Positions 6,250 through 42,515 of a stretch of 64,000 nt of DNA are shown piece by piece (position 1 is the first letter of the stretch; every line of letters begins with the position of its first letter). The DNA comes from Bacteroidota bacterium (GTDB taxonomy: Bacteria > Bacteroidota > Rhodothermia > Rhodothermales > Bin80): contig JAPPGC010000106.1 of NCBI GenBank assembly GCA_028875125.1, forward strand, positions 5,217 through 69,216, written 5' to 3'. A model generated the notes under the pieces. That model did not search any database, was not told the origin of the DNA, and was given only the letters and a program-made list of their open reading frames with translations. A program made the translations under genes and the position numbers.

Positions 6250-6465
6250 TTCTGTCTTAGAGATTGGCGGGGGATGATTTTCTAGTCAGATTGTATGAGA
6301 ATAGCATTCAAGACCAGTAATACACAATGGAATTTAAGGAGGCTCAGTAGAGAAACTGGCAAAAACTGCGCCAATCAGAATATTGGATGACAAAATGTCG
6401 CTTTGGCCATGATTGGTAACCATTTGTTTTAATTCCACGTTCAATACCGAGCAGACGACGCTAAA

Positions 6466-7452: not shown

Positions 7453-7473
7453 TTCACAGAAAATCAAGCTACC

Positions 7474-7827
7474 ATGGCAGAGGACACTAACGAGATTGAT
7501 GATTTTTCCCAGCAGTCTGATCAAGAAAGCACGGATCTAAAGATTGAGTTAAGTGAAGCCGTTGCAGACGGTCAGTATGCCAATCTGGTTATGGTAGGAC
7601 ACTCGTCGGAGGAGTTTGTGCTGGATTTCATTCTTGTGATGCCGGGGATTCCAAGAGCCAAGGTCAAAAATCGGATAATTCTCACGCCACGGCATGCCAA
7701 ACGGATGTTACACGCTCTGGGGCAGAATATTGAAAAATTTGAGCATGCAAACGGAGAGATCCCGGGTAGTCCAGTACCAGAGCATCTGTCCGTTCAGTTT
7801 GGTGGTGGTCAGGTAGGGGAGGCGTAA
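7474..7827 (+). CDS. DUF3467-like small protein
   Basis: The core YANLVMVGHSSEEFVLDF resembles the DUF3467 signature. 117 aa with an acidic N-terminus. Confidence 0.55.
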   Translation: MAEDTNEIDDFSQQSDQESTDLKIELSEAVADGQYANLVMVGHSSEEFVLDFILVMPGIPRAKVKNRIILTPRHAKRMLHALGQNIEKFEHANGEIPGSPVPEHLSVQFGGGQVGEA

Positions 7828-8910: not shown

Positions 8911-8988
8911 CTTGCGTTCACCTTATCATATTTTGAACAATAAGACAATAAGTATGTACCTGTCGGCGTCATAATCGTTCTGAATTAC

Positions 8989-10161
8989 ATGAAGGTTCAC
9001 GAGTATCAGGCTAAGAATATACTGGAAGAGTATGGTGTGGCTATGCAGCCTGGCGAAGCTGCCTCAACGGTCGCCGAGGCGGTAGAGGTTGCCCGGGGCA
9101 TGGTGCCGGTTCATGGGGAGTTGTTTGTTGTTAAGGCCCAAATTCACGCGGGTGGGCGTGGCAAGGGGGGTGGGGTAAAGCTGGCGCGCGGCCTGGATGA
9201 AGTAGCGGATGTAGCCGGGAAAATACTTGGCATGAATTTAGTTACGCATCAGACCGGTCCAGAAGGACAGCTGGTGCGTAAAGTTCTGGTAGCACCTGCC
9301 GTTGATATTGCAAAGGAGTACTACATAGGGGTAACCCTTGACCGGGCCCGCAGCCAACATGTAGTGATGGCCTCAACAGAAGGTGGTGTTGAAATAGAAA
9401 AAGTAGCTGCTGAAACACCGGACAAGATTCTCAAAGATTGGGCGGACCAGGGACTTGGTCTTCAAGGATTCCAAGCCCGACAATTAGCCTACGGGCTCGG
9501 CTTTATGGGCAAAACTGCGAGGCAGGCCGCAAGTTTTATAAGCTCACTCTTTGCTGCATACATAGGAGTCGATGCGTCTTTGGCTGAGATCAACCCGCTC
9601 GTACTTACCAAAGATGGTCGTGTGGTTGCTATTGATGCCAAGCTCAATTTGGATGATAATGCTTTGTATCGACACAAAGACCTGGCCGCACTCCGGGATT
9701 TGCACGAAGAGGATCCTTTGGAAGTGGAAGCGCATGCATCCAATTTGAATTATGTTAAACTGGATGGAAATGTTGGATGTATGGTAAATGGGGCGGGGCT
9801 GGCTATGGCGACCATGGATATCATCAAGCTTGCCGGGGGCAATCCTGCTAATTTCCTGGATGTCGGGGGTACTGCAAGTGCCGAAACCGTTGAGGCCGGA
9901 TTCCGCATCATACTAAAGGATTCAAACGTTCGCGCGGTGCTGGTGAATATATTTGGCGGTATTGTTCGCTGCGACCGGGTTGCTCGGGGCGTTGTAGAGG
10001 CTGCGCGCAACGTTGGAATTAGCGTTCCGCTGATTGTGCGGCTCCAGGGGACGAATGCTGTGGAGGGACAACGAGTATTGAACGAAAGCGGGATCGAACT
10101 TGAATCTGCCGTATTGTTTGAGCAGGCAGCAGACAAGGTACGTTTGGCGTTGGCAGCATAG
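8989..10161 (+). CDS. sucC: Succinate--CoA ligase (ADP-forming) beta subunit
   Basis: MKVHEYQAKNIL N-terminus, ATP-grasp domain and a C-terminal CoA-ligase domain (NIFGGIVRCD). 390 aa. Confidence 0.95.
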   Translation: MKVHEYQAKNILEEYGVAMQPGEAASTVAEAVEVARGMVPVHGELFVVKAQIHAGGRGKGGGVKLARGLDEVADVAGKILGMNLVTHQTGPEGQLVRKVLVAPAVDIAKEYYIGVTLDRARSQHVVMASTEGGVEIEKVAAETPDKILKDWADQGLGLQGFQARQLAYGLGFMGKTARQAASFISSLFAAYIGVDASLAEINPLVLTKDGRVVAIDAKLNLDDNALYRHKDLAALRDLHEEDPLEVEAHASNLNYVKLDGNVGCMVNGAGLAMATMDIIKLAGGNPANFLDVGGTASAETVEAGFRIILKDSNVRAVLVNIFGGIVRCDRVARGVVEAARNVGISVPLIVRLQGTNAVEGQRVLNESGIELESAVLFEQAADKVRLALAA

Positions 10162-23790: not shown

Positions 23791-24552
23791 ATGTATAAGT
23801 CAATAACAACTTTGTTTCTCTTGGGGGTGATTGTACTTCCTGTCCGCGCACAGATTGGCGTTGGTGCTGCTGCGCCAGAAGGTGCCATCGTGCTTTTTGA
23901 CGGAACCCGTGAGTCTCTGGACGAAAATTGGACCTACTGGGAAGGTCCCCGTTTCGCGGCTGAATTACCCATAAAATGGGAGATTGTGGATGATCCTGTG
24001 GACGATGGAACAGTCGTAAGCAGTAAGGATCCCTCGGCAGCAGGCGGGCTTTATGGCGCGGCAGACATTGTAACCAAGAATAAATTTCGGGATTTCAGGA
24101 TGCATGTAGAATTCCTGATCACCGAGACGGGCGGGAACAGTGGCGTGTACCTCCAGAATCGCTACGAAATCCAGGTACTTGATGGTGATTCAACCAAGCA
24201 CGGTATGGCTGCGGTTATTAATGAGAAAGAATCTCAGTACTGGCCGTACAATGGTACCGGGCAGTGGAATTCCTATGATGCGGTGTTTCGTGCTGCGCGC
24301 TTTGAGGACGGTGAGCGAACCGAGCGGGCCATGGTCACGCTTTATTTTAATGGAGTAAAGGTGCACGAGAATGTGCCAATTGAAAAGGTATGGGGTGGTC
24401 CAAATTCGGGTATTGATGGAGGCAATGATGAGGGCCGTGGCATCACAGATGTGCCGGGTGGATTAAAGTTGCAGGCCGAAGGCCATGATGTACGATATCG
24501 CAATATTTGGATACAGGGAATAGACCTTATTGAGCCTGACACGGATTTCTGA
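23791..24552 (+). CDS. Secreted DUF1080 (3-keto-disaccharide-hydrolase-like, concanavalin fold) protein
   Basis: Signal peptide, then W...W spacing, FRMHVEF, SGVYLQNRYEIQVLD and a terminal VRYRNIWIQ, which are typical of DUF1080. Confidence 0.75.
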   Translation: MYKSITTLFLLGVIVLPVRAQIGVGAAAPEGAIVLFDGTRESLDENWTYWEGPRFAAELPIKWEIVDDPVDDGTVVSSKDPSAAGGLYGAADIVTKNKFRDFRMHVEFLITETGGNSGVYLQNRYEIQVLDGDSTKHGMAAVINEKESQYWPYNGTGQWNSYDAVFRAARFEDGERTERAMVTLYFNGVKVHENVPIEKVWGGPNSGIDGGNDEGRGITDVPGGLKLQAEGHDVRYRNIWIQGIDLIEPDTDF

Positions 24553-25195: not shown

Positions 25196-27601
25196 ATGAA
25201 TAAATCCAACGAAATTGACTCAGAGATCCAGGCACTGCGCGAGCGCCTGTCCACATTGAGCGCAGCGGTTCTGCGTGTCAACTCTAGCCTCGATCTCGAT
25301 ACGGTTCTGCGCGAAATGCTGGCAGGCACGCGTGACCTGGCCGGCGCCCGCTACGGCGTGATCACGAGCATTGATGAGACAGGGCAGCCGCAGGACTACG
25401 TCACCTCCGGCTTTAGCCCGGACGAAGAGCGGCAGTTGATGGAGTGGCCCCCCGGGTTGCGTTTCTTTGAGCACCTCCGCGATCTTCCGGGACCGCTCAG
25501 GCTGACAGACCTGCCCACTTACATCCGCTCCATCGGCTACGACCCGGCCCCGATTCTTCCAAAGACCTTCCAGGCGACCCCGATGCGTCACCGTGGCATG
25601 CATGTGGGAACCTTCTTTCTCGGAAGGAAGCAGGGCGGTCGTGAGTTTACCGATGAGGACGAAGAGGTTCTGGTATTGTTCGCCTCCCAGGCAGCGGCGG
25701 CTATCGCCAATGCCCGCACGCACCGAGACGAGCAGCGGGCGCGCTCGAGTCTGGAAGCCCTAGTCGACACCTCGCCGGTAGGTGTCGTGGTCTTTGATGC
25801 GAAGACCGGTCAACCGGTTTCATTCAATCGGGAGGCGAGGCGGATCGTCGAGGGACTGCGCATGCCCGGTCATGGCGTGGAGCAGCTGCTGGACGTATTG
25901 ACGTGCCGCTTCTCCGACGGGAGTGAAGTGGCCCTTGCGGAATATCCGATCAAACGAGTGATCGACGACGCGGTGACCATGCGCGCCGAGGAGGTCGTGC
26001 TCTCGGTTCCTGATGGCCGAAGAACCACGATGCTCGTCAACTCCACCCCGATCCACGCCACCGGCAATGCAGTCGAGTCAATGATCGTCACTATGCAGGA
26101 TTTGGCGCCATTCCAGGAACTGAACCGGTTGCGGGCGGAATTTCTGGGCATGGTGAGCCACGAACTGCGTGCGCCGCTCGCTGCCATCAAAGGTTCGGCC
26201 GCGACCGTGCTAGGTAGCTCGCGGGTTCTGGACCGAACCGAGATGCAGCAGTTCTTCCGGATCATCGAAGGGCAGGCCGATCATATGGACAATCTGATCA
26301 GCGACCTGCTTGATGCGGGGCGCATTGACTCTGGCACGCTGTCGGTCGACTCCAGGCCAGTGCAGGTGTCCGAACTGGTGGAGCAGGCCCGGACCACCTT
26401 CTTAAGTGGCGGCGGCAGGCAGACCATCCGCATTGACCTGCCGCTGGACTTGCCCCGTGTGATGGCCGACGAACAACGCATTGTTCAGGTGCTGAACAAC
26501 CTCTTCTCAAATGCATCCGTGTATGCTCCCGAGTCGTCGGTCATCCATGTCGATGCGGTGCGTGATGGGGTCTATGTCGCGATTTCGGTAACGGACGAAG
26601 GCCAGGGTGTGTCGCCCGAGCAGTTGCCGTACCTGTTCCAGAAGTACACCGGGGGAGGGGGTCGACGGCAGGGCGTCGGCCTCGGTCTGGCCATCTGCAA
26701 GGGATTAGTAGAAGCCCACGGGGGCCGCATCCGAGCAGAGAACGCCGGACCCGGACAAGGAACCCGGTTCACTTTCACGATTCCAGTGGTCGAGGAGATT
26801 GAACATGGTGCGATGGACATCCCGACGCATGGAGAGCGCACGGATCGACGGAAGCCGCTAGTGCTCGCAGTGGACGATGATCCTCAGTTTCTAGGGCATG
26901 TGCGGGCGACCCTCAACGACGCCGGGTTCAGTCTGCTTACCACAGGCAACCCGAATGAGGTGTCCGACTTGGTTGATGAACACGACCCCCATCTGGTCCT
27001 GCTGGACCTTCTGCTGCCCGAGATGGACGGCATAGAGCTGATGCAACAGGTTCCGGCGCTGGCGGATCGGCCGGTCATCTTCCTGTCCGCATATGGCCGG
27101 GATGAAACGGTTGCAAGGGCCTTGGAGATGGGAGCTGTAGATTACATCGTCAAGCCGTTTTCGCCCACGGAACTGGTGGCCAGGGTCCAGACCGCGCTGC
27201 GCAAGAGCGACGTATTCCCTGAAACGTTCCAGTCGGGAGCTCTTGTGATCAACTACGAAGAACGCCGGGTTACCGTGAGCGAAGTTCCGCTGGAACTCAC
27301 CGCCATTGAGTACGACCTGCTTCGTGTCCTTTCGACCAATGCCGGTCGGGTAGTGACCTACGAAAACCTGTTGCGTACCGTGTGGCGATTGACCGGTCGC
27401 GAAGATAGGCGTCGGGTCAGGGCATTCGTGAAAAAATTGCGAGACAAACTGGGCGATGATGCGGACAACCCAACGTACATCCTAACCGAGCCGCGGGTAG
27501 GCTACCGTATGCCCAGGCCCGACGACACGCCAGATGCCGCGGGTGGGCTTGGGAATGAGGACCCATTGAACTCTCAGCGCGCAGAGGGCGAGGCGAGCTA
27601 G
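25196..27601 (+). CDS. Soluble hybrid sensor histidine kinase fused to a complete OmpR-type response regulator (GAF-PAS-HisKA-HATPase_c-REC-wHTH)
   Basis: H-box SHELRAPL, N-box NNLFSNASVY, G-boxes DEGQGV and GVGLGLAICK. REC domain with VDDDP, LLDLLLPEMDG and VKPF. C-terminal winged helix (LTAIEYDLLRVL...EPRVGYRM). No hydrophobic TM stretch. The DNA is visibly GC-rich. Confidence 0.9.
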   Translation: MNKSNEIDSEIQALRERLSTLSAAVLRVNSSLDLDTVLREMLAGTRDLAGARYGVITSIDETGQPQDYVTSGFSPDEERQLMEWPPGLRFFEHLRDLPGPLRLTDLPTYIRSIGYDPAPILPKTFQATPMRHRGMHVGTFFLGRKQGGREFTDEDEEVLVLFASQAAAAIANARTHRDEQRARSSLEALVDTSPVGVVVFDAKTGQPVSFNREARRIVEGLRMPGHGVEQLLDVLTCRFSDGSEVALAEYPIKRVIDDAVTMRAEEVVLSVPDGRRTTMLVNSTPIHATGNAVESMIVTMQDLAPFQELNRLRAEFLGMVSHELRAPLAAIKGSAATVLGSSRVLDRTEMQQFFRIIEGQADHMDNLISDLLDAGRIDSGTLSVDSRPVQVSELVEQARTTFLSGGGRQTIRIDLPLDLPRVMADEQRIVQVLNNLFSNASVYAPESSVIHVDAVRDGVYVAISVTDEGQGVSPEQLPYLFQKYTGGGGRRQGVGLGLAICKGLVEAHGGRIRAENAGPGQGTRFTFTIPVVEEIEHGAMDIPTHGERTDRRKPLVLAVDDDPQFLGHVRATLNDAGFSLLTTGNPNEVSDLVDEHDPHLVLLDLLLPEMDGIELMQQVPALADRPVIFLSAYGRDETVARALEMGAVDYIVKPFSPTELVARVQTALRKSDVFPETFQSGALVINYEERRVTVSEVPLELTAIEYDLLRVLSTNAGRVVTYENLLRTVWRLTGREDRRRVRAFVKKLRDKLGDDADNPTYILTEPRVGYRMPRPDDTPDAAGGLGNEDPLNSQRAEGEAS

Positions 27602-28142: not shown

Positions 28143-30170
28143 TCAGGCAGGAACGCCAACCTTAGCGGGGAGTCGATCGGCGACAATTTCCGCGATATCC
28201 TTCACATCCGGGCCGTCTACTGTTTTTGCTGCAGCGTCGCGAAGCATCGTCAGGCAGAACGGGCAAGCAGTAGCTACGGTACTGACGCCCGTAGCTGCTG
28301 CCTCAGCGTAGCGTGTTTCATTGATTCTTGGTACCGGTTCATCCATCCACATTTGTGCTCCTCCCGCACCGCAGCAAAATGATTTTTTTCGGTTGCGTGG
28401 CATTTCAGTTATGACTGCCCCAGACTCTTCGAGAACCGATCGGGGAGCCTCGGTGATATCGTTCTGCCGTCCCAGATAGCAGGGATCGTGCAAAGTGACA
28501 TTTTCTTCAAGGTCATCAGTCGGCAGGCGTCCGGCGTCCGCAAGTTCTGACAGAAGCTCAGTGTGATGGATCACTGTATAGTGTCCGCCTAAAGCAGAAT
28601 ACTCGTTGCCCAGAGTATGCAGGCAATGAGGACAGGTGGTCATTATTCGGGGTGGATTCACTGAATTCAGTGTTGCGATATTGGCTGAGGCGAGTTCTGA
28701 GAACAGATATTCGTTGCCACTCCTGCGTGCTGAGTCTCCACTGCAGCGTTCCTTGCTTCCCAAGACGGAGAAGCTAACCCCAGCAGCTTCAAGCACGCGC
28801 ACCAGCGCACGGGCTGTTTTCTGGGCGCGTTGGTCATATGAAGGGGCGCATCCCAACCACCATAGAATTTCGGCATCAGGTTGTTGTTCAACAGTTGGGA
28901 CGACCAGGCCGTCAGCCCATTTCAGCCGGTCTCCAGCCCCCATGTTCCATGGATTGCCGTTACGCTCCATGCCCTGGTAAACTGTCTCCAGTTCCTCCGG
29001 GTATTGATCTTCCATCAGAACCAATCCACGTCGAATCTCCAGGATATCGAGCATCGGAGCGTTCGCTACGGGACAAATCGCTGTACAGGCACCGCAAGCG
29101 GTGCATGCCCACACAGCGGACTCGGTGATGGCATATTCGGTAAGCATCGCGTCGGGCGGTTTTCCCGAAGCCAGATCATGAAGGTTTTCGTTGATGAAGT
29201 AGCGTTTGTTGATCTCGAGAGCCGCAGGTGACAATTCCTTGCCTGTTTCGCATGCCGGGCAGACATCCTGGCATCGATTACACATAATGCAGGCGAATGC
29301 GTCAGCAATACCCGACTGCGGAAGTTGTTCAAGTTTTAATGCTCCAAAGACTTCAATATTTTCATTCGAAAAATCAATCGGGTCAAGTGCACCGGGCGAT
29401 TTCCGGTCTATCTGTGTGGCGAAGTTGAAGCCGGACATAATAAAATGCACGTGCTTCGTGTATGGGAAATAGGGAGCAAAGGCCAAGATCAATCCTAGCG
29501 CCCCCCACCAGCATACGTGATGCCAGATCGTCAGCGTATCTGTCCCCAATCCTGCCCAGATTGGAGCAATTGCAGAGGCAATTGGTTGCCAGGGATCAGG
29601 GGAATGCAGTTGAATGGCCACGGATTCACCCAGCACGCGGAACCCCACATGGCACAAAATAAAAATGCCGACGATCAGAGAATCACGTGATACCGTTTGG
29701 TTGAGGAAGGAGAGCCGGGAATTCTTGATTCGGAGGACATTCGCCCGCTGTGAGAAAACCTTGCGTCCAGGAAACACAAAGCGTCGCAGCAGGAGCCATG
29801 CCATGGCCAGCAGCACTGCGCCGCTGGCAAGATCAACCGCAAGGCGGTAGCTTTGACTGATCCAGTCTGGAAATAGGACAGGTTCGTCAACATAACCACG
29901 GATCACATCTACGACATTGACCAATAGGTATAGTACGAATCCCCATGCGAGTGCTGCGTGTACGGCACCGGTAATGCGCCGTGTTCCCCAGATTGGACGC
30001 ATTACAATCCATGTACCGAGCGCACGAATCGTACGTTGCCAGTCCGTTGAGAGAGAGGGCGCCTGGCCGTAACGTATAGTTCGAAACATCGCGGAAAAGC
30101 CCAAGCTCGTGCCGTATGCAGTGAAGATCACCGCAAGGGCAAAGAGTGCTTTTTCCGTCAGGGTCAGCAT
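28143..30170 (-). CDS. Membrane-bound Fe-S oxidoreductase: NarI/DsrM-like polytopic domain fused to 2x[4Fe-4S] ferredoxin and two CCG (HdrD/DsrK/GlpC-like) domains
   Basis: About 5-6 N-terminal hydrophobic helices with conserved His. Ferredoxin motifs CIMCNRCQDVCPA and CTACGACTAICPV. Cysteine-rich CCG-type motifs (ERCSGD...CPHC; SFCCGAGG...CPFC). Confidence 0.8.
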   Translation of the reverse strand: MLTLTEKALFALAVIFTAYGTSLGFSAMFRTIRYGQAPSLSTDWQRTIRALGTWIVMRPIWGTRRITGAVHAALAWGFVLYLLVNVVDVIRGYVDEPVLFPDWISQSYRLAVDLASGAVLLAMAWLLLRRFVFPGRKVFSQRANVLRIKNSRLSFLNQTVSRDSLIVGIFILCHVGFRVLGESVAIQLHSPDPWQPIASAIAPIWAGLGTDTLTIWHHVCWWGALGLILAFAPYFPYTKHVHFIMSGFNFATQIDRKSPGALDPIDFSNENIEVFGALKLEQLPQSGIADAFACIMCNRCQDVCPACETGKELSPAALEINKRYFINENLHDLASGKPPDAMLTEYAITESAVWACTACGACTAICPVANAPMLDILEIRRGLVLMEDQYPEELETVYQGMERNGNPWNMGAGDRLKWADGLVVPTVEQQPDAEILWWLGCAPSYDQRAQKTARALVRVLEAAGVSFSVLGSKERCSGDSARRSGNEYLFSELASANIATLNSVNPPRIMTTCPHCLHTLGNEYSALGGHYTVIHHTELLSELADAGRLPTDDLEENVTLHDPCYLGRQNDITEAPRSVLEESGAVITEMPRNRKKSFCCGAGGAQMWMDEPVPRINETRYAEAAATGVSTVATACPFCLTMLRDAAAKTVDGPDVKDIAEIVADRLPAKVGVPA

Positions 30171-30179
30171 GGACCCAGG

Positions 30180-31436
30180 CTAACCCAATGTGTAGGATGC
30201 TGGATCAATATCTCTTTGAGCCCGCTCCATAATGGCTTGGTTGGCAGTAATCGCAACCGCAGTAGCTTCCAGTCCACGTTCCCAATTTGCCGCGGGAGGA
30301 TACGGACCAAAGGCATGGTTGTCCATGAATTCCTGCAGCGCATACCAGAGTGGTGTTTCTACGTTTGGATCATCCTCGGTGGGGTCCACATTCTGGGCGT
30401 CCAATTGGGTTGCATTCGCCAGGAGTGCGATTCCTGTTTCCTTGTAGAACCGGTCCGTTCGCGCGTACACTTCCCAACCAAGCATCGGAGCATCTACCTC
30501 CTTGAACATCCAGGCCTTGCCTCGGTCGCGGAATAAGATAGTGCTGTCGGAGCCATAGTAGGCCTCATAGGCTTCATCAAAAGAGCTGGCCAGCGTTGCA
30601 TCAAACATCATATGCAAGCCACTGGGGAATTCAAAGATGGCCTGAATCGTGTCTGGGACCTCCCGACCATCTTCCCAGGCCATAATCTGACCAAAACCGT
30701 GAACGGAGGCAGGCAGTTCTCCAAGTACCCAGTACGCAACGTCCATCTGAAGTAACGCAGCTTCACCAATCAATCCCGTAGTTATCGCTGGATCCAGACG
30801 CCAGTTAAGCTCGCGCACCCGGTCGGCGCTTGGAGACGCCCGTCGCCAACTTTCCTTGGCGTGCCACTGCCCCCGTGCCATGGCAGGTTTGCCAATAGCA
30901 CCACTACGCATAAACTGAAATACCGAGCGGTGCTGAGGGTTAGAGCGGTAAGTCTGACCAACCTGGAATATTTGCCCGGTTGCATCACGTGCGGCACGTG
31001 CAATCGCTTTGGCATCCTCAATGGAAGATGCCATAGGGGCTTCGCAATACACATTCTTGCCCGCTTGAAGTGCATTTACTGCAATATCGCGATGCAGGTG
31101 CGTAGGCGTTGCAACAATTATGGCCTGAATATCAGGGTTGTTCAGGATCTCGCGGTAATCTTCGTGTCGGGTTGCCTCTGGCGCATCCCGCTGCGCACGG
31201 CGAAGCATTGGGCCATACGTATCACAAATAGCCGCAACCTGAGCGCCGGGTACACGAGCAAGTGTGGCCGTAATGTCACGTCCCTGGGGGCCATACCCGA
31301 TAATTCCGCACTGAACGTCGTTGCGATTACCAGGCCATAATCTTGTCTTGATGTTGGCTGCGCGAACTAGGCCTGCTCCGCTGAGTGCGGCGCTGCCCAT
31401 CAGGAATGCCCGTCTGCTGACTGTGTGCTTGCTCAT
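30180..31436 (-). CDS. Tat-signal Gfo/Idh/MocA-family oxidoreductase
   Basis: Twin-arginine motif SRRAFLMGSAAL, Rossmann start GIIGYGPQG and EAPM-type motif (YCEAPMA). ATG 31436 overlaps the upstream stop (TAATG). Confidence 0.85.
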   Translation of the reverse strand: MSKHTVSRRAFLMGSAALSGAGLVRAANIKTRLWPGNRNDVQCGIIGYGPQGRDITATLARVPGAQVAAICDTYGPMLRRAQRDAPEATRHEDYREILNNPDIQAIIVATPTHLHRDIAVNALQAGKNVYCEAPMASSIEDAKAIARAARDATGQIFQVGQTYRSNPQHRSVFQFMRSGAIGKPAMARGQWHAKESWRRASPSADRVRELNWRLDPAITTGLIGEAALLQMDVAYWVLGELPASVHGFGQIMAWEDGREVPDTIQAIFEFPSGLHMMFDATLASSFDEAYEAYYGSDSTILFRDRGKAWMFKEVDAPMLGWEVYARTDRFYKETGIALLANATQLDAQNVDPTEDDPNVETPLWYALQEFMDNHAFGPYPPAANWERGLEATAVAITANQAIMERAQRDIDPASYTLG

Positions 31437-32386
31437 TACTGATTGGTTGGGTGTGTTGAATGAAATTCCAAGGAAACAAGATCTGTCGCACCTGCATCGT
31501 CGTACACACACAGTGTACGCATACCATGAAATTTTTGTTGAACCTGTTTGCCATCTTCTCGTCTCATGGCGAGTAGTGCGGTTGAAATCGCATCACAGAT
31601 CATTGCAGAAGGATGTGCGACTGCAGATAACGTTGCACCTTGCACGGGGTAACCTTTTCGTGGGTCAATCACATGTCCCCACATCTTGCCGTCTTTTTGG
31701 AAGCCTTTACCTCTGGGGGCCGAAACCGATAAGGCTTCATCACGGATAGACGTTGAGGTGAGCATTTGCGAGTCATCCAGCGGATCGGATATGCCTATCG
31801 GCCAACCGTCGGTATTCTGCGGAGGTGTTCCGATGGCCAACATGGTACTTGTTCCTCCGTGTAACAGTGCGGAAGTTATGCCACCCTCCCGCAAAAATAT
31901 TCCGGCCTCTTCTATAGCATATCCTTTTCCGATCGCGCCAAGATCCAGTGCCATGCCTGGTTGTCTAAAGGCGACGGTTCGTTCTGCATCGTTCAACACG
32001 ACCTTGTCCATCCCCGTTTTAGTCAAGGCTTCTTTTCTTTCATGCTCCTCGGGCCAAGTGCCCCGACCACGAACAAATCCCCAACAACGCATGAGCGGGC
32101 CCACTGTCACATCAAAAGCACCATGCGTCTCGTTATGGATTTCCGCGGCCTTCCTGAGTAATGAGTACAGCCTGGGGGTTACTCGTACGGGTTCCTTTGA
32201 TGCGTTGGCGTTTAATTGGCTGATTTCACTGGTTGGGTCGTAAAAGCTCAGTTGCTGTTCCAATCGTTTTATTTCTGCTAGAGCCTCTTCCCCTGCTCCA
32301 CGCAACAGGACTGCATCGTCCCCGTGGAGCAAGAACTCAAACCGTGTAGCCATGGCATTTAGTGCCATTCGAACGGTTTGCATCAA
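31436..32386 (-). CDS. apbE: FAD:protein FMN transferase (ApbE family), no signal peptide
   Basis: ApbE core motifs (AMATRFEF..., LSFYDPTSEISQLN, LDLGAIGKGYA, SAPRGK). The protein starts at the conserved core. The track start 32386 is TTG and an ATG lies at 32383. Confidence 0.85.
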   Translation of the reverse strand: MMQTVRMALNAMATRFEFLLHGDDAVLLRGAGEEALAEIKRLEQQLSFYDPTSEISQLNANASKEPVRVTPRLYSLLRKAAEIHNETHGAFDVTVGPLMRCWGFVRGRGTWPEEHERKEALTKTGMDKVVLNDAERTVAFRQPGMALDLGAIGKGYAIEEAGIFLREGGITSALLHGGTSTMLAIGTPPQNTDGWPIGISDPLDDSQMLTSTSIRDEALSVSAPRGKGFQKDGKMWGHVIDPRKGYPVQGATLSAVAHPSAMICDAISTALLAMRREDGKQVQQKFHGMRTLCVYDDAGATDLVSLEFHSTHPTNQ

Positions 32387-32461
32387 CCTGCCGGACTGGA
32401 AGAAGCGGAAAGAGGAGGATAGATGGCCTATCGCTCACTTATGCCCTTCAGCTTATTTGCC

Positions 32462-33856
32462 TCAATGAGTTTCCGTGGCGTATGTGATCGGCTCTACCTT
32501 CGTGCCGCTGCCGGTATGCAGGGATCGGTCTTCTTCATTGAAGTAGAGCATCTCACCCATACGCTCGCTCATTTCTGCCATAGAGATGATCGTCTGTGCA
32601 CGGATGGCAACATCAATATTTCCGTTCGTCTGGCCATCATCACGAATCGCCGTGAAGAAATCATGAATATGAGCCGGAACATCTGCGCCTGGCAGGAGAT
32701 TTTCCATTTGCTCTCCGTCCACCAAATCAGCAAAAGGACGCTCAGGGCGAAGCTCTAAACTCTCACCACTGAAGTATAGCGTGCCCTCGTTGCCCCGGAT
32801 AACCTGTCCGAGTCCCTGCTCATTCACACTGCTGCCGGTAATGACCATACACAAACCACTCGGGAATTCGGTCAATAGTTGGCAGTTGTCCGTTACATCG
32901 CGGTCTTCCGCGCCCAGGATTGAATCACCAATTTTCTTGTTACCTACGGAACATACACGCTTCGGAAATTCAGGAGCACCTGTTGCGATCAGGAGCGGAT
33001 GGATCCGATGTGCCAATAAGTCTCCCAGAATGCCTGCACAGTACGGGTAGTACTTACGCCAGCGATGATAATGCTGTGCGTTGAAATCACGGGCAGACAC
33101 TGGGCCGAGCCACTTTTCCCAGTTAATCGTTTTTCCGGGCTCCAGCTCCGGTTCTAGCCGATAGTAATTCCATTCGCCGATGGGTGTATTGCGGCAATAG
33201 GAATCCTGAGCGAGCACCAGCGGGCCGATGCGGCCTGCACGAATTAACTCGGCAGCTGCATGCCATTTGCCCTGTGTACAAAATTGTGATCCGATCTGGA
33301 ACTTCTTACCGGTTTCCTTGACCTTGTCGTAGATCTGGAACCCTTCGTCGAAATACCGGGTCATTGGCTTTTCGCAGTAGACATGCTTTCCTGCGTCTAG
33401 TGCATCCAGAGCGATCTGTGTGTGCCAGTGGTCAACGGTGCCAATGAATATGGCATCAATGTCCGGGTTATCCAGGATAGGCCGATAGTCTTCATGAACT
33501 TCCACTGCTGCCTCACGGCCTGCCTCCTGACGGGCGGCTTCCAGTGCTGCGTGAGCCTGATCACGACGTTTGGAGAACAGGTCACAGGCCGCCGCACCAG
33601 CGGCATTAAGCTGTACGTTATGCCGTGGCCTGCCGTTGTTGGTTGGGTTTGTAACGTTTAGGAGGTGTGCATTAAATCCCTGTCCACCTACACCAATAAA
33701 CCCGCATACGACTGTATCGTTGGCTCCCAGTACTGCTCCAGTAGCTGGTGCTTTAGCGCGTCCGGTCTTCGCACCATGTATGCCAGCCATGACAGCGGCG
33801 GTGCCGGCAGCAGATTTTTTGAGAAAGTCGCGGCGGGAGTGTTGCTTATTTAGCAT
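32462..33856 (-). CDS. Tat-signal Gfo/Idh/MocA-family oxidoreductase
   Basis: Twin-arginine motif SRRDFLKKSAAGTAAV, Rossmann start GFIGVGGQG and the YCEKPM motif. Start set at ATG 33856 (MLNKQHSRRDF). Confidence 0.85.
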   Translation of the reverse strand: MLNKQHSRRDFLKKSAAGTAAVMAGIHGAKTGRAKAPATGAVLGANDTVVCGFIGVGGQGFNAHLLNVTNPTNNGRPRHNVQLNAAGAAACDLFSKRRDQAHAALEAARQEAGREAAVEVHEDYRPILDNPDIDAIFIGTVDHWHTQIALDALDAGKHVYCEKPMTRYFDEGFQIYDKVKETGKKFQIGSQFCTQGKWHAAAELIRAGRIGPLVLAQDSYCRNTPIGEWNYYRLEPELEPGKTINWEKWLGPVSARDFNAQHYHRWRKYYPYCAGILGDLLAHRIHPLLIATGAPEFPKRVCSVGNKKIGDSILGAEDRDVTDNCQLLTEFPSGLCMVITGSSVNEQGLGQVIRGNEGTLYFSGESLELRPERPFADLVDGEQMENLLPGADVPAHIHDFFTAIRDDGQTNGNIDVAIRAQTIISMAEMSERMGEMLYFNEEDRSLHTGSGTKVEPITYATETH

Positions 33857-34201
33857 TTGTCTGAATGATTGAGTTGTGAACAACAAGTACGGAAGCGTTT
33901 CCGATGGAACTTGAACCGCTTTCATTGGGACAAGTAACCCCCCAATATAAGGAATACAACGAAATGCGGCAACAAGTCCGATCACCAAGTACGCTGCATA
34001 GATGGTATAGGTTCAGGGCAGGCCTAGGAGTTCTATGGAGCAGTAATTTGAGTTTTGACGGGACAAGTGCGTGAGTACTTGGTTAACTTCGGGTATTCGA
34101 CCGGACGATCACAAAATGGTTATTGATTGGTGTTGTCCGCTCTGTTGAAACTTTTAAACTATTTTGACCTAAAATCTACTACACTAAGTCGTTTTGTTGT
34201 A

Positions 34202-34795
34202 ATGCCTTCATTAAAACTCAAGCTCATCCTGCGAGTGGTTGTTCTGACTCTCGTACTTGTCGCACCAGTATATGCGCAGACTACGGAATACGTCGTTGCT
34301 CCAGAAAGTGAGATGCATGTGGATGGCACATCAAATCAGACACCGGAATGGCGCGTCTATGCTACACAGATTGACGGTACATTGAGTATGAATGAGGAAG
34401 GACGCGTTGACTCCGTACGTCTTGTGATACCCTCCAAGATGATGAAAAGCAGAAAAAGTCCCATCATGGACCGTGGCATGCATGGAGCACTCAAGGCAAA
34501 TCAGCACGCCGAGATCGTCTATGAACTCGTGTCTGTATCTGATTTCACGATGACGGGGGACAACACATTCACGCTCAATTCGACCGGCAATCTCACCATT
34601 GCGGACGCAACCAAAGAGATCGCGATTCCGATTGAGGGCATTGCACAGGAGAATGGTCGCGTACATTTCACTGGGAGTCATTCGCTATTGATGAGTGAAT
34701 ACGACCTCAAGCCTCCCACCATGATGTTCGGTGCGTATCGGACGGGGGATGAGTTAACGGTGACGTTTGAACTTATTGCCGCTCCAGCGGAATGA
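34202..34795 (+). CDS. YceI-like periplasmic (polyisoprenoid-binding-fold) protein
   Basis: Signal peptide. The pattern VDGTSN..W...G.L........V..V...I....M.S......D..M, GNLTIADATKEI and MSEYDLKPP fits the YceI family. Start at ATG 34202. Confidence 0.65.
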   Translation: MPSLKLKLILRVVVLTLVLVAPVYAQTTEYVVAPESEMHVDGTSNQTPEWRVYATQIDGTLSMNEEGRVDSVRLVIPSKMMKSRKSPIMDRGMHGALKANQHAEIVYELVSVSDFTMTGDNTFTLNSTGNLTIADATKEIAIPIEGIAQENGRVHFTGSHSLLMSEYDLKPPTMMFGAYRTGDELTVTFELIAAPAE

Positions 34796-35137: not shown

Positions 35138-38100
35138 CTATTCCCTTATCGGTGGTGCACCGGTTGCTTCGAGAGCACTGGTAAGTGCTGTGACGATGTC
35201 CTGTTCAAATGAGGCCAGTGAAGCTTCCAGTTCTTCCAGCTGTGCGCTGCCAGTCTCTAGTGATTGCCTGTGCAGGTCGGTCGGACCATAGGTCGTTCGT
35301 AGGCCGCTTTGTCCAACAGACAGTCTAGACATCACGGTTGGTGCATCACGCTCGCCTGGTCCGTCTTTTGCCTCGTAGCCGCTCAGATCCCGTCGGATAT
35401 TCAGGAGGGTTGTACGTGCAGCATGCAACTCTGTGGTCAAATCGGCTGAAGGATTCGGGGCACGCAAATGAGCAGTTTGCATGGCGTCCACAAGATCAAT
35501 GTTATCTGCAAGTGATCCTGACAGGAGGCTGGCACGCTGCATTAGCGAAGCGGCCCGGGCTCTGTATTCGGCGATTTCGCTGGGGGTACTGCCCGCAAGG
35601 GCAGGCGTACGCAGCAGTTCAACTTGGAATGTGACTGGGCCGGACAGGACAGATTCTACCCCGTCACGGACACGTACAAGCGTGGCAGTGTAGCTGCCGG
35701 GGGTAGCGAGATAGCCGCCCTGGCCAAATCCTCCACCGGAGGAACCCGGTGTAATTACGGCGTGGGACGGGTACCTCAGATTCCAGGTGACCCGGTGCAA
35801 ACCCTTTGAGGTACTTCCAGCAACCCGCCCGACAACCTGTTCAGATTCATCACGAACAATCACGAAGACCTTATCGGCAACTTCGTTGCGCTCGGCTTCA
35901 AGTGCATCCCATCCCGGGAAGGGGATATCAATTTCGCCGGCTTCTTTTTCCCTTTCTTTACGAGCTTGTCTCAGGGTAGTCGGACTTTCGCGGAGGTAAT
36001 AGGTAAATGTTGCTCCGAACGGTGGATTGGGAGCTGCGAAGTAGTCTGTACCCTGTGATCCACCGGCAACATCGCGTTCTACATATAGCTTGGCAGTACG
36101 CGGTGCAAAAAGGTGTGCCTCATTGGCGAGCAAATCTGCATTGACGTGACGGAGCGGGGTGTAGTCATCAAGCACAAAGAAACCGCGACCGAAAGAGGCC
36201 CCTACAACATCGTTCTCCCGCCGTTGGATTGTAATGTCACGAAACGAGATCGTCGCATCAGATGCCACCTTTATCCATTCCACACCGCCGTCAACAGTAA
36301 AGTATATCCCGAATTCAGTGGCGGTGAAGAGCAGATTCGGATTTACATGGTCCTGCACAATACGCCAAATGAGTGTTCGATCAGGGAGATTTCCTGTGAT
36401 TGAAGTCCAGAAATGCCCGCGATCATTGCTCTTGATCAGATAAGGAGATAAATCTCCAAACTTGTGGTTGTCCAGTGCTGCAAAGACGACGTCAACGTCA
36501 TGCAGGTCGGCGTAAAGGTTGTTAACAAACGCGGTTGCCGGAATGCCATCAATGCTGCCGACTTCTACCGCTCGCCATGTTTCGCCGTCGTCTTCAGTAA
36601 CCTGGATCAGTCCATCGTCGGTTCCCGCATACAGTAGACCGGCTTGTAGCGGGGATTCTGCGAGAGAAGTAATCGTGTTGTAGACCGACATGGCATTGAA
36701 ATCCCATGGGTTGTCGTAGCTCTGTACACGTCCCATGATGGGAAGAGCAATACGCTCCTGATCACGAGTCAAATCACTAGATATTGCGGTCCAGCTGTCG
36801 CCCCGGTCTGTTGAATTCCAGACACGGTGGGATGCAAAATAGAGCGTGGTTGGAGAGTGTGGACTCACAACAATCGGGGCGTCCCAGTTGTAGCGCTCGT
36901 GTTCTTCTCCGGGACCCGCCTGGGGTTGAATCAAGGTTTGCTCGCCCGTGATGAGATCCACACGGTTCATACGTCCCTGCTGTGACTCAGCATAAATGAT
37001 ATCCGGGTTCCCAGGCTCGGTGGCAGATTGATGCCCGTCTCCACCAAGCGTCTTGAACCAGTCGGCATTGCGTATGCCATGCCGATTATCTGTGCGGGAT
37101 GGTCCACCGTGTGAACCATTATCCTGTGTACCGCCAAATATGCGATAGAATGGTTCTGAGTCATCAACTGCCAACTTGTAGTATTGGGTGATTGGCAGGT
37201 TGCTTATAAAACGCCAGGATTCCGTTCCGTCATAGGTTTCAAATAGTCCACCGTCTGTGCCCATAAGGATATAGTCTGGATCATCCGCACGGAATGCGAT
37301 TGCATGATTATCTGAGTGCTTATCGCTTTCGCTCATGCGATAAAATGTGCGACCATGATCATGAGATACCTGTGTGCGCACATCCATAAGATATATGGTC
37401 CCTTCCCTGTGTGGGGAGGCATAGAGTTCCTGATAATAGTGGGGACCGGTTGCGCCGCTTACCGTATCTGACATTTTTCTCCAGGATGCACCACGATCAC
37501 TGGACATAAAGATGCCGCCCGTTGTTAGATCAAGCTCAATTGCGGCATAAATGATGTCAGGGTTCTGGGGTGATATTGCGAGCCCAATCTTACCAAGATT
37601 TGATTTGGGTATCCCGCGCGTCAGTGCTGTCCATGTACGCCCTCCGTCAGTGCTTTTGTGCAGTCCACTACCGGGGCCACCTCCCATGTACGCAGCCACA
37701 TTTCGGTGACGCTGCCATGTAGCTGCATAGAGTACAGCGGGATCGCGGGGATCAATCACCACATCCGTTACCCCTACCCATTCATCATCACCCAAAGTTT
37801 GTTCCCATGATTCACCGCCGTCAACACTCATGTAGAGTCCACGCTCGCCGCCGCTGTTCCACAGGGGGCCTTGTGCGGCTACCCAGATCACATCACCATT
37901 ATCGGGATGGACAATGATACGGGAGATGTGCATGGATTCTTTAAGTCCCATATTTTTCCATGTCTTACCTCCGTCATCGCTGCGATAAATGCCATCACCG
38001 TAGGCTACGTGGCGTCCACCCACATTTTCGCCGGTGCCGACCCAAACCGTGTGGGGATTACGGGGGTCAAGCGTAAGCTCTCCAATTGAATAGGATCCCT

Positions 38101-38359
38101 GGCCGTCAAACAAGGACTCCCATGTCGTGCCGGCGTTGATGGTCTTCCACACGCCTCCGCTACCCACGGCGACGTACCACATGTTATCATCGTCGGGGTG
38201 CATGGCAATATCTGCAATGCGTCCGGAAGTGAAGGCAGGGCACACATTACGTAGCTTCAGAGCAGAAAAGTTAGTCTCACTGATCAAGTTATCTTGCGCG
38301 GAAGCAGGCAATGCGATTAACAGCACAAGGGCGGTGAGTACACGGAGGGCGTAGGTCAT
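35138..38359 (-). CDS. Secreted BNR/Asp-box repeat, sortilin (VPS10)-like tandem beta-propeller protein
   Basis: Signal peptide and at least 8 Asp-box motifs of the SxDxGxTW type (SDDGGKTW, SVDGGESW, STDGGRTW, SSDRGASW, STDRGDSW, TEDDGETW, SNDRGHFW, TVDGGVEW). 1073 aa. Confidence 0.8.
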   Translation of the reverse strand: MTYALRVLTALVLLIALPASAQDNLISETNFSALKLRNVCPAFTSGRIADIAMHPDDDNMWYVAVGSGGVWKTINAGTTWESLFDGQGSYSIGELTLDPRNPHTVWVGTGENVGGRHVAYGDGIYRSDDGGKTWKNMGLKESMHISRIIVHPDNGDVIWVAAQGPLWNSGGERGLYMSVDGGESWEQTLGDDEWVGVTDVVIDPRDPAVLYAATWQRHRNVAAYMGGGPGSGLHKSTDGGRTWTALTRGIPKSNLGKIGLAISPQNPDIIYAAIELDLTTGGIFMSSDRGASWRKMSDTVSGATGPHYYQELYASPHREGTIYLMDVRTQVSHDHGRTFYRMSESDKHSDNHAIAFRADDPDYILMGTDGGLFETYDGTESWRFISNLPITQYYKLAVDDSEPFYRIFGGTQDNGSHGGPSRTDNRHGIRNADWFKTLGGDGHQSATEPGNPDIIYAESQQGRMNRVDLITGEQTLIQPQAGPGEEHERYNWDAPIVVSPHSPTTLYFASHRVWNSTDRGDSWTAISSDLTRDQERIALPIMGRVQSYDNPWDFNAMSVYNTITSLAESPLQAGLLYAGTDDGLIQVTEDDGETWRAVEVGSIDGIPATAFVNNLYADLHDVDVVFAALDNHKFGDLSPYLIKSNDRGHFWTSITGNLPDRTLIWRIVQDHVNPNLLFTATEFGIYFTVDGGVEWIKVASDATISFRDITIQRRENDVVGASFGRGFFVLDDYTPLRHVNADLLANEAHLFAPRTAKLYVERDVAGGSQGTDYFAAPNPPFGATFTYYLRESPTTLRQARKEREKEAGEIDIPFPGWDALEAERNEVADKVFVIVRDESEQVVGRVAGSTSKGLHRVTWNLRYPSHAVITPGSSGGGFGQGGYLATPGSYTATLVRVRDGVESVLSGPVTFQVELLRTPALAGSTPSEIAEYRARAASLMQRASLLSGSLADNIDLVDAMQTAHLRAPNPSADLTTELHAARTTLLNIRRDLSGYEAKDGPGERDAPTVMSRLSVGQSGLRTTYGPTDLHRQSLETGSAQLEELEASLASFEQDIVTALTSALEATGAPPIRE

Positions 38360-41009: not shown

Positions 41010-42515
41010 ATGGCAGCAGAAAGACAACTTAATAGGCGTGAATTTATCGCCACTACAAGCGGGGCCGCTGCCGCGGCAGCTGTATTACCTCGGCGGGTTC
41101 TCGGGGGACCCGGGCGTGTTGCCCCCAGCGACAGAATAAATGTTGCACTCATCGGTTCTGGTACGCAGGCTCTACGCCAACTCATGAGTGACTGGCTGCC
41201 GAGAGAAGACCTGAGTCTTGTTGCGGTGTGCGACCCCAATACGGATTCAGATGATTATCGTGACTGGAGTCCACATGGTATACGCAATTCGGTTCGGCGA
41301 TTCCTGAATAATCCTAACTGGGGATCTGAGACAGGTATTCGGGCTGGTCTCATGGCGGGCAAAGAATTGATAGAAGGTTACTATGCGAACGAGCGCGCGC
41401 AGGGTGACTGGAACGGATTAAAGCTCTACGCGGATTATAGGGAAATGCTGGCTGAATCGGAGGACATCGATGCTGTGATAGATATGACGCCAGAGCACCT
41501 TCACGGCGTAGTTAACATTGCAGGCATGAAAGCAGGCAAAGCAGTGATTTCTCACAAAGTTCTGGCCAATACGCTGCATGAGGTACATCATACGGTTCGG
41601 GTGGCCAAAGAGACCGGTGTGACCACGCATTTGATGGCTTGGAACAACGATCCAAGTCTGTATCAGTTGTGGGAATGGCTTGATCAAGGTATCATCGGAA
41701 AGGTGAAAGAGGTACATAACTGGTCGAATCGCCCTGTCTGGCCACAAGGTTGGATGGAAAATCCGAAGGAAGCGATGCCGATTCCCGAAGGTTTGGACTG
41801 GAGTTTGTGGCTGGGTTGTGTACCGGATAGATCCTACCACCTTGACTACACGCATGCACTGTTTCGGGGGTGGTTTGAATTCGGTAGCGGTTGCCTGGGG
41901 GATATGGGGCAGTACAGCCTGTGGAGGACGTATCGAATGCTGAATCCCGGTCCAGTGGTCAGTGTTCAGGCAAATGCCGCGACGGGTGCAGTTATTGTGG
42001 GGAATCAAAGCCAATGGCGTCGCTCAGAAGTGGCATTCCCGTCGGCAAGTACAGTGCATTTTGAGCATAAGGACTTAGACATCTTCTGGTATGATGGTGG
42101 GATGAAGCCGCGTGTACCGAACGGGTTACTTGCACCGGGTGAACGCCTCCCACGTGAGGGCGTGCTGTACATTGGAGAGTACGGTACAATCATGGGAAAT
42201 AATTTTCTTGCGACTGATTTTCGCCTTTTGCCTGAGAGTCGAATGACCGCTCTGCAGGGGTCCATGCCTGCTGTTCGACCTGCAGAGGACGTGAAGGGTT
42301 CGGTAGACGAGTACGTGGATGCAATTCGTGAAGGCAAGCAGAGTCGGGGCAGCTTCATTAACATCGCAGATCTGGCCGAGGCGACCTGTTTAGCAACGAT
42401 TGCTTTACGGACCGGCGAGCACATTAGTTGGGATGCTGAAAACATGAAGGTGACGAGTGAAAATGTCCCTCACGAACTCATGACACGTGAGTATCGTGAC
42501 GGTTGGGCGGTTTAG
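41010..42515 (+). CDS. Tat-signal Gfo/Idh/MocA-family oxidoreductase (third copy)
   Basis: Twin-arginine motif NRREFIATTSGAAAAAA and Rossmann start ALIGSGTQA. 501 aa. Confidence 0.8.
   Translation: MAAERQLNRREFIATTSGAAAAAAVLPRRVLGGPGRVAPSDRINVALIGSGTQALRQLMSDWLPREDLSLVAVCDPNTDSDDYRDWSPHGIRNSVRRFLNNPNWGSETGIRAGLMAGKELIEGYYANERAQGDWNGLKLYADYREMLAESEDIDAVIDMTPEHLHGVVNIAGMKAGKAVISHKVLANTLHEVHHTVRVAKETGVTTHLMAWNNDPSLYQLWEWLDQGIIGKVKEVHNWSNRPVWPQGWMENPKEAMPIPEGLDWSLWLGCVPDRSYHLDYTHALFRGWFEFGSGCLGDMGQYSLWRTYRMLNPGPVVSVQANAATGAVIVGNQSQWRRSEVAFPSASTVHFEHKDLDIFWYDGGMKPRVPNGLLAPGERLPREGVLYIGEYGTIMGNNFLATDFRLLPESRMTALQGSMPAVRPAEDVKGSVDEYVDAIREGKQSRGSFINIADLAEATCLATIALRTGEHISWDAENMKVTSENVPHELMTREYRDGWAV

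Follow-up and report, generated by a model that had tools for sequence, protein, structure and literature searches.

The window studied here, a stretch of 64,000 nucleotides from contig JAPPGC010000106.1 of a Bacteroidota bacterium of the order Rhodothermales, contains four tightly spaced genes on its minus strand. Listing of the open reading frames (ORFs) and inspection of the sequence place them in the order G1, ApbE, G3 and G4, where G1 and G3 denote the first and second of two Gfo/Idh/MocA dehydrogenases with twin-arginine (Tat) signals, ApbE an FAD:protein FMN transferase, and G4 a protein with membrane, Fe-S and CCG parts. An earlier reading of the same DNA (the original prediction) had described a minus-strand array of four genes with a TAATG overlap and gaps of 9 and 75 nt, and had assigned a domain family to each product; the ORFs and the sequence bear out the array, and a Pfam and NCBIfam scan all four assignments. 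In effect, the ApbE stop codon overlaps the G3 start in the TAATG at 31436, and 9 nt separate G3 from G4. The spacer between G1 and ApbE measures 75 nt when counted to an in-frame TTG and 78 nt when counted to the ATG, and it is at the ATG (MQTVR...), not at the TTG, that ApbE homologues start. A scan for promoters and terminators gave counts at or near shuffle level, with a consensus unsuited to this phylum. Over G4 the window shares 99% identity with a metagenome-assembled genome (MAG) of a Rhodothermaceae bacterium from a sponge.

The G1-ApbE pair

G1 (32462..33856, 464 aa; PF01408, PF22725 and PF19051), an NAD-type dehydrogenase, and G3 (30180..31436, 418 aa; PF01408, PF22725 and PF02894) both contain the N- and C-terminal GFO_IDH_MocA domains of Pfam. 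The signal peptide of G1 (MLNKQHSRRDFLKKSAAGTAAVMAGIHGA..., 33752..33856, end approximate) reaches 22.4 bits with the Tat signal model TIGR01409, whose cut-off is 16.7 bits, and its motif RR[DE]F[IL]KK is kept across 38 G1-type sequences. G3 carries the motif SRRAFLMGSAAL, without any match to a Tat hidden Markov model; its N-terminus reads S-R-R-x-F-L, followed by an h-region and an AxA site (VRA), and is conserved in orthologues (SRRAFL in G3-type proteins). The twin-arginine motifs that had been noted in both proteins are thus upheld, in G1 by a score above the cut-off and in G3 by motif, and export of both through Tat seems likely. The GxGxxG, EKP and GDxxxH motifs are visible in G1, and alignments show the GxGxxG, EKP and Asp/His motifs of the Gfo family to be conserved in G1 and G3 alike. 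A search against PDB sequences placed the dehydrogenases 8tdh/8tdf (8e-22) closest to G1, followed by DgpA and 6a3f; the best matches of the two proteins taken together are 8tdh/8tdf, DgpA, 6a3f (levoglucosan-dehydrogenase family by NCBIfam) and GFOR. With NF058561, the model of BT_2158-type glycoside 3-dehydrogenases, G1 scores 98.2 bits and G3 70.4 bits, below the cut-off of 750. As far as sequence tells, the likeness to glycoside and levoglucosan 3-dehydrogenases is of family level only, and it is by family resemblance that the substrate of G1 and G3 may be taken as a sugar or glycoside C-OH.

Both proteins share with Zymomonas glucose-fructose oxidoreductase, Caulobacter aldose-aldose oxidoreductase and the BT2158-type enzymes the succession of a twin-arginine signal and a Rossmann domain, and the EKP and Asp/His catalytic motifs of Tat-exported Gfo enzymes with non-dissociable NAD(P) are present in them. 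Unlike the present locus, the known Tat-Gfo systems come without an ApbE, and either their cofactor is recycled with the help of another sugar substrate or no acceptor is known. Enzymes of this kind hold bound NAD(P), and for BT2158 of B. thetaiotaomicron the acceptor has been stated as unknown (PMC8121099).

The ApbE gene (31436..32383, 315 aa) encodes a protein that matches PF02424 at 9e-66 over model positions 2-259 of 266, and the profile of its subfamily matches ApbE, Ftp and FmnB structures in the PDB at 1e-46. Its invariant positions include GAIGKG (149-154), D264, S267 and T268, and the catalytic-base His H237, which in alignments stands at the position of the SHI/HHI His in V. cholerae ApbE and in Listeria FmnB; the Mg/FAD motif D264-x-x-S-T is invariant in the subfamily. 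Since the catalytic His, the GAIGKG element and the Mg/FAD motif are all kept, this short ApbE looks like an active transferase. The original prediction that it bears neither a signal peptide nor a lipobox proved correct. No start codon occurs in the 16 in-frame codons that precede the TTG, back to a TGA, and the peak 19-residue hydropathy (1.34) lies at aa 255, away from the N-terminus. Furthermore, all of the 120 closest cluster representatives (at least 50% identity, 237-347 aa, from several sources including a Pedosphaera MAG) lack a signal peptide and begin either ~9 residues before the AMATRFE core, with the shared start M-x-T-V-R-L-A-L-x-AMATRFE, or at the core itself. Because every one of the 120 starts near the core, the missing signal cannot be put down to the assembly.

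Cytoplasmic ApbEs are known (PMC12052999). The cytoplasmic enzyme of Klebsiella pneumoniae, which flavinylates a soluble fumarate reductase, and the ApbE domains of trypanosomatid fumarate reductases have the same signal-less fold with intact catalytic His and Mg/FAD motifs. These act on an FMN-binding domain with D-x-x-[ST]-G-A-[ST], whereas no such domain is encoded near the ApbE of the window, whose conserved partner is instead a Rossmann dehydrogenase probably exported through Tat. A Rosetta-stone search found no Gfo-ApbE fusion among 150 representatives, and one apparent fusion (P0365) proved to be a read-through artefact. The ApbE profile did retrieve two natural fusions of other kinds, namely an Nramp metal transporter-ApbE of 762 aa (P0411) and a Tat-signal calcineurin-like phosphoesterase (Metallophos)-ApbE of 638 aa (P0489). 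The latter indicates that folded export through Tat occurs among relatives of the short ApbE; NosX, a member of the ApbE family, also has a Tat signal of its own.

The distribution of these genes singles out two of them. A metagenome scan with the ApbE alignment returned 80 loci at 38-56% identity, 47 of which include at least 1.5 kb of upstream sequence; in 28 of these a G1-type Tat-Gfo gene lies directly upstream of the short ApbE, and a partial G1 (its 3' end) is seen in 14 of the 33 loci with shorter upstream sequence. The Gfo beside ApbE scores 320-820 bits with G1 and 50-85 with G3 across Rhodothermota- and Verrucomicrobia-type loci. Contigs of Verrucomicrobia type (Pedosphaera-type) have the order Gfo (458-463 aa)-ApbE-rhomboid, without G3 and G4, and their Gfo is again of G1 type (436-459 bits with G1 versus 62-70 with G3). 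The order G1-ApbE-G3 without G4 occurs in three further loci (L090, L092 and L155). G3-type genes are found in a minority of loci and in three arrangements (G1-ApbE-G3, G3'-G1'-ApbE and ApbE-Gfo'); clusters of Rhodothermota type have them, those of Verrucomicrobia type do not. It is G1 together with ApbE that forms the conserved unit.

Two other sets of neighbours recur. In the window a gene for a YceI-like periplasmic lipid/polyisoprenoid-binding protein (34127..34795, plus strand; PF04264 at 6e-09) diverges from G1, and the same divergent YceI stands beside G1 in L001-4, L006, L007, L011, L084, L085, L090, L092 and L155, so that in clusters of Rhodothermota type it adjoins G1 whether G4 is present or not. 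Three loci with no Gfo neighbour (L096, at 4807-9883, L099 and L110) present a UbiA-family prenyltransferase and a radical-SAM gene of CofH/MqnC type, then the short ApbE, then a rhomboid protease gene; in the Gfo-ApbE loci of Verrucomicrobia type, too, ApbE is succeeded by a rhomboid gene. Radical-SAM genes of CofH/MqnC type belong to the futalosine pathway of menaquinone synthesis. A menaquinone theme surrounds the short ApbE, through the EMO-type G4 in the window (see below), YceI in Rhodothermota-type clusters, and UbiA with the MqnC-like gene in the three Gfo-less loci.

Elsewhere in the window, a gene whose product has a signal peptide and is a DUF1080/3-keto-disaccharide hydrolase (23791-24552, plus strand) lies 3.6 kb downstream of G4, and a further Gfo/Idh/MocA paralogue of 501 aa (41010-42515, plus strand) 7 kb upstream of G1. 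Both genes fit a periplasmic metabolism of the 3-keto-glycoside type in this bacterium.

G4, an EtfD/EMO-type protein, and its neighbourhoods

G4 (28143..30170, 675 aa) is homologous over its full length to EtfD of M. smegmatis (PDB 9ojn; phmmer 1.1e-100). A model of G4 built with AF2 on 20 homologues (pLDDT 74.5) superposes on the same structure with a TM-score of 0.82 at 31% identity over 727 alignment columns, membrane domain included, and Pfam recognises Fer4_8/9/10 and two CCG stretches (5.5e-32). Both ferredoxin Cys motifs and both CCG domains of the original prediction are present; of its "about 5-6" hydrophobic helices, hydropathy, loop charges and the model agree on five, not six. These make up the membrane domain (aa 1-245, 29436..30170) and span residues 4-33, 65-93, 102-132, 160-189 and 210-237 in the model. 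Lys plus Arg residues number 7 after the first transmembrane (TM) helix and 9 after TM3, against 2 after TM2, and together with hydropathy and the model they place the N-terminus outside and the C-terminal Fe-S part in the cytoplasm, a topology that EtfD and the structure of Syntrophus EMO share.

The cofactor ligands of EtfD can be followed through G4. The proximal heme b is predicted to be held by H71 and H242, the counterparts of EtfD H78 and H241. H242 aligns with H241, as does F231 with F230, the Phe that contacts menaquinone in EtfD; H71 falls outside the aligned stretch and was matched to H78 by its position in TM2 and the full-length fold match. In the dicluster ferredoxin domain (aa 289-370, 29061..29306; Fer4_8/9/10) eight invariant Cys, C294, C297, C300, C304 and C356, C359, C362, C366, would bind two cubane [4Fe-4S] clusters and pair one-to-one with EtfD C301/304/307/311 and C412/415/418/422. 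The first CCG domain (aa ~436-520, 28611..28865, delimited by alignment to 9ojn and by invariant columns) has C441, C476, C513 and C516, with S477 at the position of EtfD T539, which predicts a linear [3Fe-4S] cluster. In the second (aa 558-644, 28239..28499, delimited by the best Pfam CCG stretch and the EtfD alignment), C564, C599, C600, C636 and C639, aligned to EtfD C637/672/673/709/712, together with H515 predict a non-cubane [4Fe-4S] cluster. All EtfD heme and Fe-S ligands are invariant in the 20 G4 homologues, and all but H71 align to EtfD. The presence of S477 and H515 points to the closed ligation of EtfD and not to the open, heterodisulfide type; with Ser/Thr and His replacing Hdr cysteines in this way, the CCG domains would form a wire rather than a catalytic site. 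EMO-type domains keep a canonical His for the distal heme 18 residues ahead of the proximal one; at this position G4 has Ala224, and an invariant His, H218, stands six residues before it at the periplasmic end of TM5. MsEtfD keeps a His at the distal position yet binds no distal heme. Two invariant His of the G4 family, H174 (TM4) and H218 (TM5), are matched by no His in the aligned part of EtfD.

Mycobacterial EtfD (Rv0338c; 9ojn) and the ETF:(methyl)menaquinone oxidoreductase (EMO) of Syntrophus aciditrophicus are single chains, as is G4, and all follow one plan of five NarI/HdrE-like TM helices, two cubane [4Fe-4S] clusters and two CCG domains. EtfD and G4 further share the Thr/Ser substitution that leads to a linear [3Fe-4S] cluster and the His that completes the non-cubane one. 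In length G4 (675 aa) is near SaEMO (706) and lacks the ~265-aa disordered C-terminal tail of mycobacterial EtfD. The HdrDE, DsrMK and TmcBC modules resemble G4 in joining a cytochrome b membrane domain to a cytoplasmic HdrD-like Fe-S/CCG part and in exchanging electrons with (mena)quinone; G4 differs in being a single chain and in its EtfD-type closed CCG ligation, against the open catalytic ligation of heterodisulfide reductases. Assignment to the DsrMK/HdrDE type was rejected on scores (DsrK 44 bits versus 400, TmcB 58 versus 735, HmcF 38 versus 750). In EtfD/EMO proteins the Fe-S chain and the proximal heme face the cytoplasm and electrons enter from cytoplasmic ETF, and by alignment and fold G4 is best described as an EtfD/EMO orthologue with electron entry predicted on the cytoplasmic side. 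The EMO preprint describes EMO as general among organisms that contain menaquinone and live on fatty acids, and G4 is therefore best read as the EtfD/EMO of its lineage. No etfAB was found among the annotated neighbours of G4, and in mycobacteria likewise no etfAB is known near the EtfD gene. An operon with Tat-Gfo and ApbE is a context undescribed for the EtfD/EMO family. The original prediction had called the locus unlike any characterised system, which stands for the set of four genes and fails for G4, itself a member of a structurally characterised family.

To what extent G4 belongs with the other three genes was addressed by scanning species-representative genomes with the G4 alignment, which gave 80 loci whose ORFs were searched with the four window proteins. 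ApbE and Gfo genes adjoin G4 only in Rhodothermales loci (L003-L011). The co-conservation of the four genes, whose lack the original prediction had named as a refutation, was found within Rhodothermales-type genomes (L003-L009), and the four-gene order is kept among Rhodothermales species down to ~58% G4 identity. Two loci of the order deviate, L010 having no G1 within 10 kb and L011 an insertion of 3.3 kb before G4. All four genes are also kept, with insertions, in L011, L084, L085 and L172, and the last three of these retain ApbE-G3-G4 with inserted sequence. In the other 71 of the 80 loci (L012-L082), which are mostly from Chloroflexota, with two from Calditrichaceae, one cyanobacterial and one from an unclassified MAG, G4 has no ApbE or G1/G3-type gene beside it, four of them showing weak Gfo matches (30-89 bits). 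Among these no neighbour of G4 is common to more than 11 loci. The most recurrent are a Mrp/ApbC-type Fe-S carrier ATPase (11 loci) and the E1/E2/E3 genes of branched-chain 2-oxoacid dehydrogenase (6-9 loci); recurrent genes in only 6-11 of the 71 loci were not accepted as conserved Chloroflexota partners of G4, although these neighbours fit a role in acyl-CoA/ETF-linked catabolism. One locus (L173) combines G4 with the downstream synteny of the window (3-keto-disaccharide hydrolase, PMSR, GlcN-isomerase/PIG-L) and lacks G1 to G3. Conversely, none of the 80 metagenomic loci that hold a short ApbE has a G4 homologue. The linkage of G4 is confined to Rhodothermales-type genomes.

Downstream of G4, several relatives (L084, L085, L172 and L173) carry a convergent pair of genes for a MoCoBD xanthine-dehydrogenase-family molybdopterin subunit and a [2Fe-2S] Fer2_2 subunit. 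What the window has at the same position is a hybrid gene, GAF-histidine kinase-receiver-Trans_reg_C (25196-27601, plus strand).

The search for a flavin acceptor

Every proven ApbE substrate carries [ST]GA[ST], usually as D-x-x-[ST]-G-A-[ST]. We searched with the expressions D..[ST]G[AS][ST] and [ST]GA[ST] all ORFs of the window and, in about 100 loci, the ORFs within 4 kb of ApbE. The scan agrees with the earlier statement that the four proteins hold no canonical flavinylation motif: the motif is absent as a conserved feature from the 38 G1-type and 15 G3-type proteins, and no recurrent neighbour of ApbE within these 4 kb carries a conserved one. The two closest approaches then named, RITGAVHAA in G4 and MRSGAIGK in G3, do exist, but neither is conserved as an acceptor-type motif. 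At the first, G4 homologues read RPLTSTIHA and other variants; the second is the usual Gfo element G-x-[IL]-G, with Ile/Leu at the would-be acceptor position. G4 was likewise discarded as a clade-specific target, no Ser/Thr column being at least 90% conserved in ApbE-linked G4 and at most 30% elsewhere.

The only exact ApbE consensus in the window, DTVSGAT, lies at aa 313-319 of a Sortilin-Vps10/BNR beta-propeller protein with a Sec signal (35138-38359, minus strand, 1073 aa). In 120 BNR homologues the site reads [DN][AT]V[SA]G[AG]T-GPHYYQ, with the terminal Thr in 119 and the exact consensus in ~70. The gene adjoins YceI/G1 in some Rhodothermaceae loci and elsewhere does not, and in a Balneolaceae genome neither Gfo nor ApbE lies close to the homologue. 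Given that the motif is family-wide and the gene is not a general neighbour, we rejected this protein as the ApbE target; judging by its homologues, DTVSGAT is probably a coincidental family motif.

The clusters surveyed by Meheust et al. 2021 (NQR, RNF, NosR/NosX, PepSY-, MsrQ- and NapH-like) resemble this locus in that an ApbE gene accompanies redox proteins and a membrane electron-transfer component. In them, by contrast, ApbE is exported and the acceptor carries [ST]GA[ST], and their membrane proteins are of other families than the cytoplasm-facing G4. That survey does not mention Gfo/MocA proteins, and our literature search for ApbE together with Gfo/Idh/MocA returned no relevant paper. 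The novelty lies in a clade of ApbE proteins without signals that is paired, in more than one phylum, with a single clade of Tat-Gfo proteins and no canonical acceptor.

Interpretation of the locus

On balance we lean, by a little, towards reading the locus as a composite operon in which two modules are joined, a G1-ApbE unit and an EtfD-type G4. The first module would comprise a G1-type Gfo exported folded through Tat with its nicotinamide cofactor, and a cytoplasmic, catalytically intact ApbE, to which Rhodothermota-type genomes would add the second Tat-Gfo (G3) and the divergent YceI. We infer that, before export takes place, ApbE works on the folded precursor of G1 or together with it. Since the catalytic His and Mg/FAD motifs of ApbE are intact, the link between the two would consist either in maturation in the cytoplasm, with FMN attached to G1 at a non-canonical site, or in co-export, with ApbE travelling as a Tat hitchhiker of G1. 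Under both options periplasmic G1 might gain a flavin-linked route by which its trapped NAD(P)H is re-oxidised towards the menaquinone pool. Put in full, the proposal is that a signal-less ApbE clade matures one Tat-Gfo clade in the cytoplasm, by placing FMN outside the [ST]GA[ST] rule or as a co-exported bound subunit, and that the resulting enzyme with NAD(P) and flavin hands electrons to menaquinone; in so explicit a form we offer it tentatively, as a rather doubtful possibility. In the second module G4 would reduce menaquinone with electrons supplied by a flavoprotein of the cytoplasm (among characterised members, ETF), its place in the operon being specific to the Rhodothermales lineage. 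Most likely G4 is co-regulated respiratory equipment and not the acceptor for the periplasmic dehydrogenases.

Several observations weigh against the two-module reading. No D-x-x-[ST]-G-A-[ST] and no conserved [ST]GA[ST] is found in G1, G3 or G4 over the ~100 loci, and the sole conserved Ser/Thr-rich element of G1, small-small-small-[ST]-V-N at aa 340-345, lies in a beta-strand region and has a counterpart in G3 (DATLASS). Some 40% of the informative metagenomic ApbE loci have no adjacent Gfo, so that ApbE may serve targets encoded elsewhere. Furthermore, G3 and G4 are spaced by 9-12 nt in L003-L009 and G4 stays beside G3 throughout the order, a tight linkage that could reflect a real functional link which we discount.

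The last point bears on the model of the original prediction, in which G1 and G3 oxidise periplasmic sugars, the electrons pass through G4 to quinones, the covalent FMN supplied by ApbE bridges the gap, and all form one complex. The four genes do form one tight array resembling a transcription unit, and their order is held among Rhodothermales species to the G4 divergence given above. In addition, the invariant H218 at the periplasmic end of TM5, together with the distal hemes and periplasm-side quinone site in the structure of the related Syntrophus EMO, makes a periplasm-facing redox centre in G4 conceivable. Against this, the Fe-S chain and proximal heme of EtfD/EMO proteins are turned to the cytoplasm and fed by ETF, the shielded, non-catalytic cluster ligation (S477, H515) is conserved in G4, its canonical distal-heme position is Ala224, and no Ser/Thr is specific to ApbE-linked G4. 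The neighbourhoods point the same way, G4 occurring mostly without Gfo/ApbE (71 loci) and the G1-ApbE pair mostly without G4, both in Verrucomicrobia-type genomes and among the short-ApbE loci of the metagenomes (80 of 80). A dedicated conduit from periplasm to quinone through G4, as originally envisaged, thus finds no support, G4 being an orthologue of EtfD/EMO that faces the cytoplasm and its neighbourhoods being as described, and we judge the model very improbable.

Two further explanations concern ApbE itself. FAD-bound ApbE might cross the membrane on Tat-signal G1, which would then be mainly an export partner, and act on canonical substrates encoded elsewhere, such as NQR/RNF-type subunits, or on the Sortilin/BNR protein encoded close by, at DTVSGAT. 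In favour are the adjacency to a Tat substrate, conserved across several phyla, the intact catalytic residues, the lack of an acceptor motif in the conserved neighbours, the related Tat-signal Metallophos-ApbE fusion (P0489), the Tat signal of NosX and the position of the sole exact consensus of the window in a Sec-exported neighbour. However, the Gfo-less ~40% of short-ApbE loci are at odds with it, the BNR motif is family-wide whether or not ApbE is present, and the BNR gene is no neighbour in many clusters; taken together with its targets, this explanation seems to us unlikely. Alternatively, ApbE could serve an unlinked cytoplasmic flavoprotein, as a transferase or in FAD handling, and its adjacency to Gfo would be historical. 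Cytoplasmic ApbEs that serve soluble reductases are known, no acceptor was found in the neighbourhood, and genes of various kinds (for rhomboid, for menaquinone biosynthesis, for housekeeping) surround ApbE, all of which such an inherited gene order would explain. Nevertheless, from Rhodothermota- to Verrucomicrobia-type genomes one specific Gfo clade stays beside ApbE while all else changes, a persistence hard to explain without selection, and we consider mere inheritance improbable.

The pairing of G1 with ApbE is thus a moderately interesting lead, and not the system that the original prediction proposed. Bacteroidota, Rhodothermota, Planctomycetota and Verrucomicrobiota abound in Tat-exported Gfo/Idh/MocA dehydrogenases, which underlie the 3-keto-glycoside route of glycan breakdown. 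We know of no account of the periplasmic re-oxidation of their non-exchangeable NAD(P)H and, to our knowledge, flavinylation biology has been mapped so far only for exported ApbEs and [ST]GA[ST] acceptors. The occurrence, across phyla, of a signal-less ApbE beside a Tat-Gfo is thereby relevant to the fields of both glycan breakdown and flavinylation. If ApbE does mature G1 or is co-exported with it, G1 would represent a new class of ApbE client, and the way in which Tat-exported Gfo enzymes are re-oxidised would be answered. As for G4, a "(Fe-S)-binding protein" that had so far gone without a name in Rhodothermales and Chloroflexota can now be assigned to the EtfD/EMO family; on this assignment the protein is predicted to connect ETF-dependent catabolism with menaquinone in both lineages.

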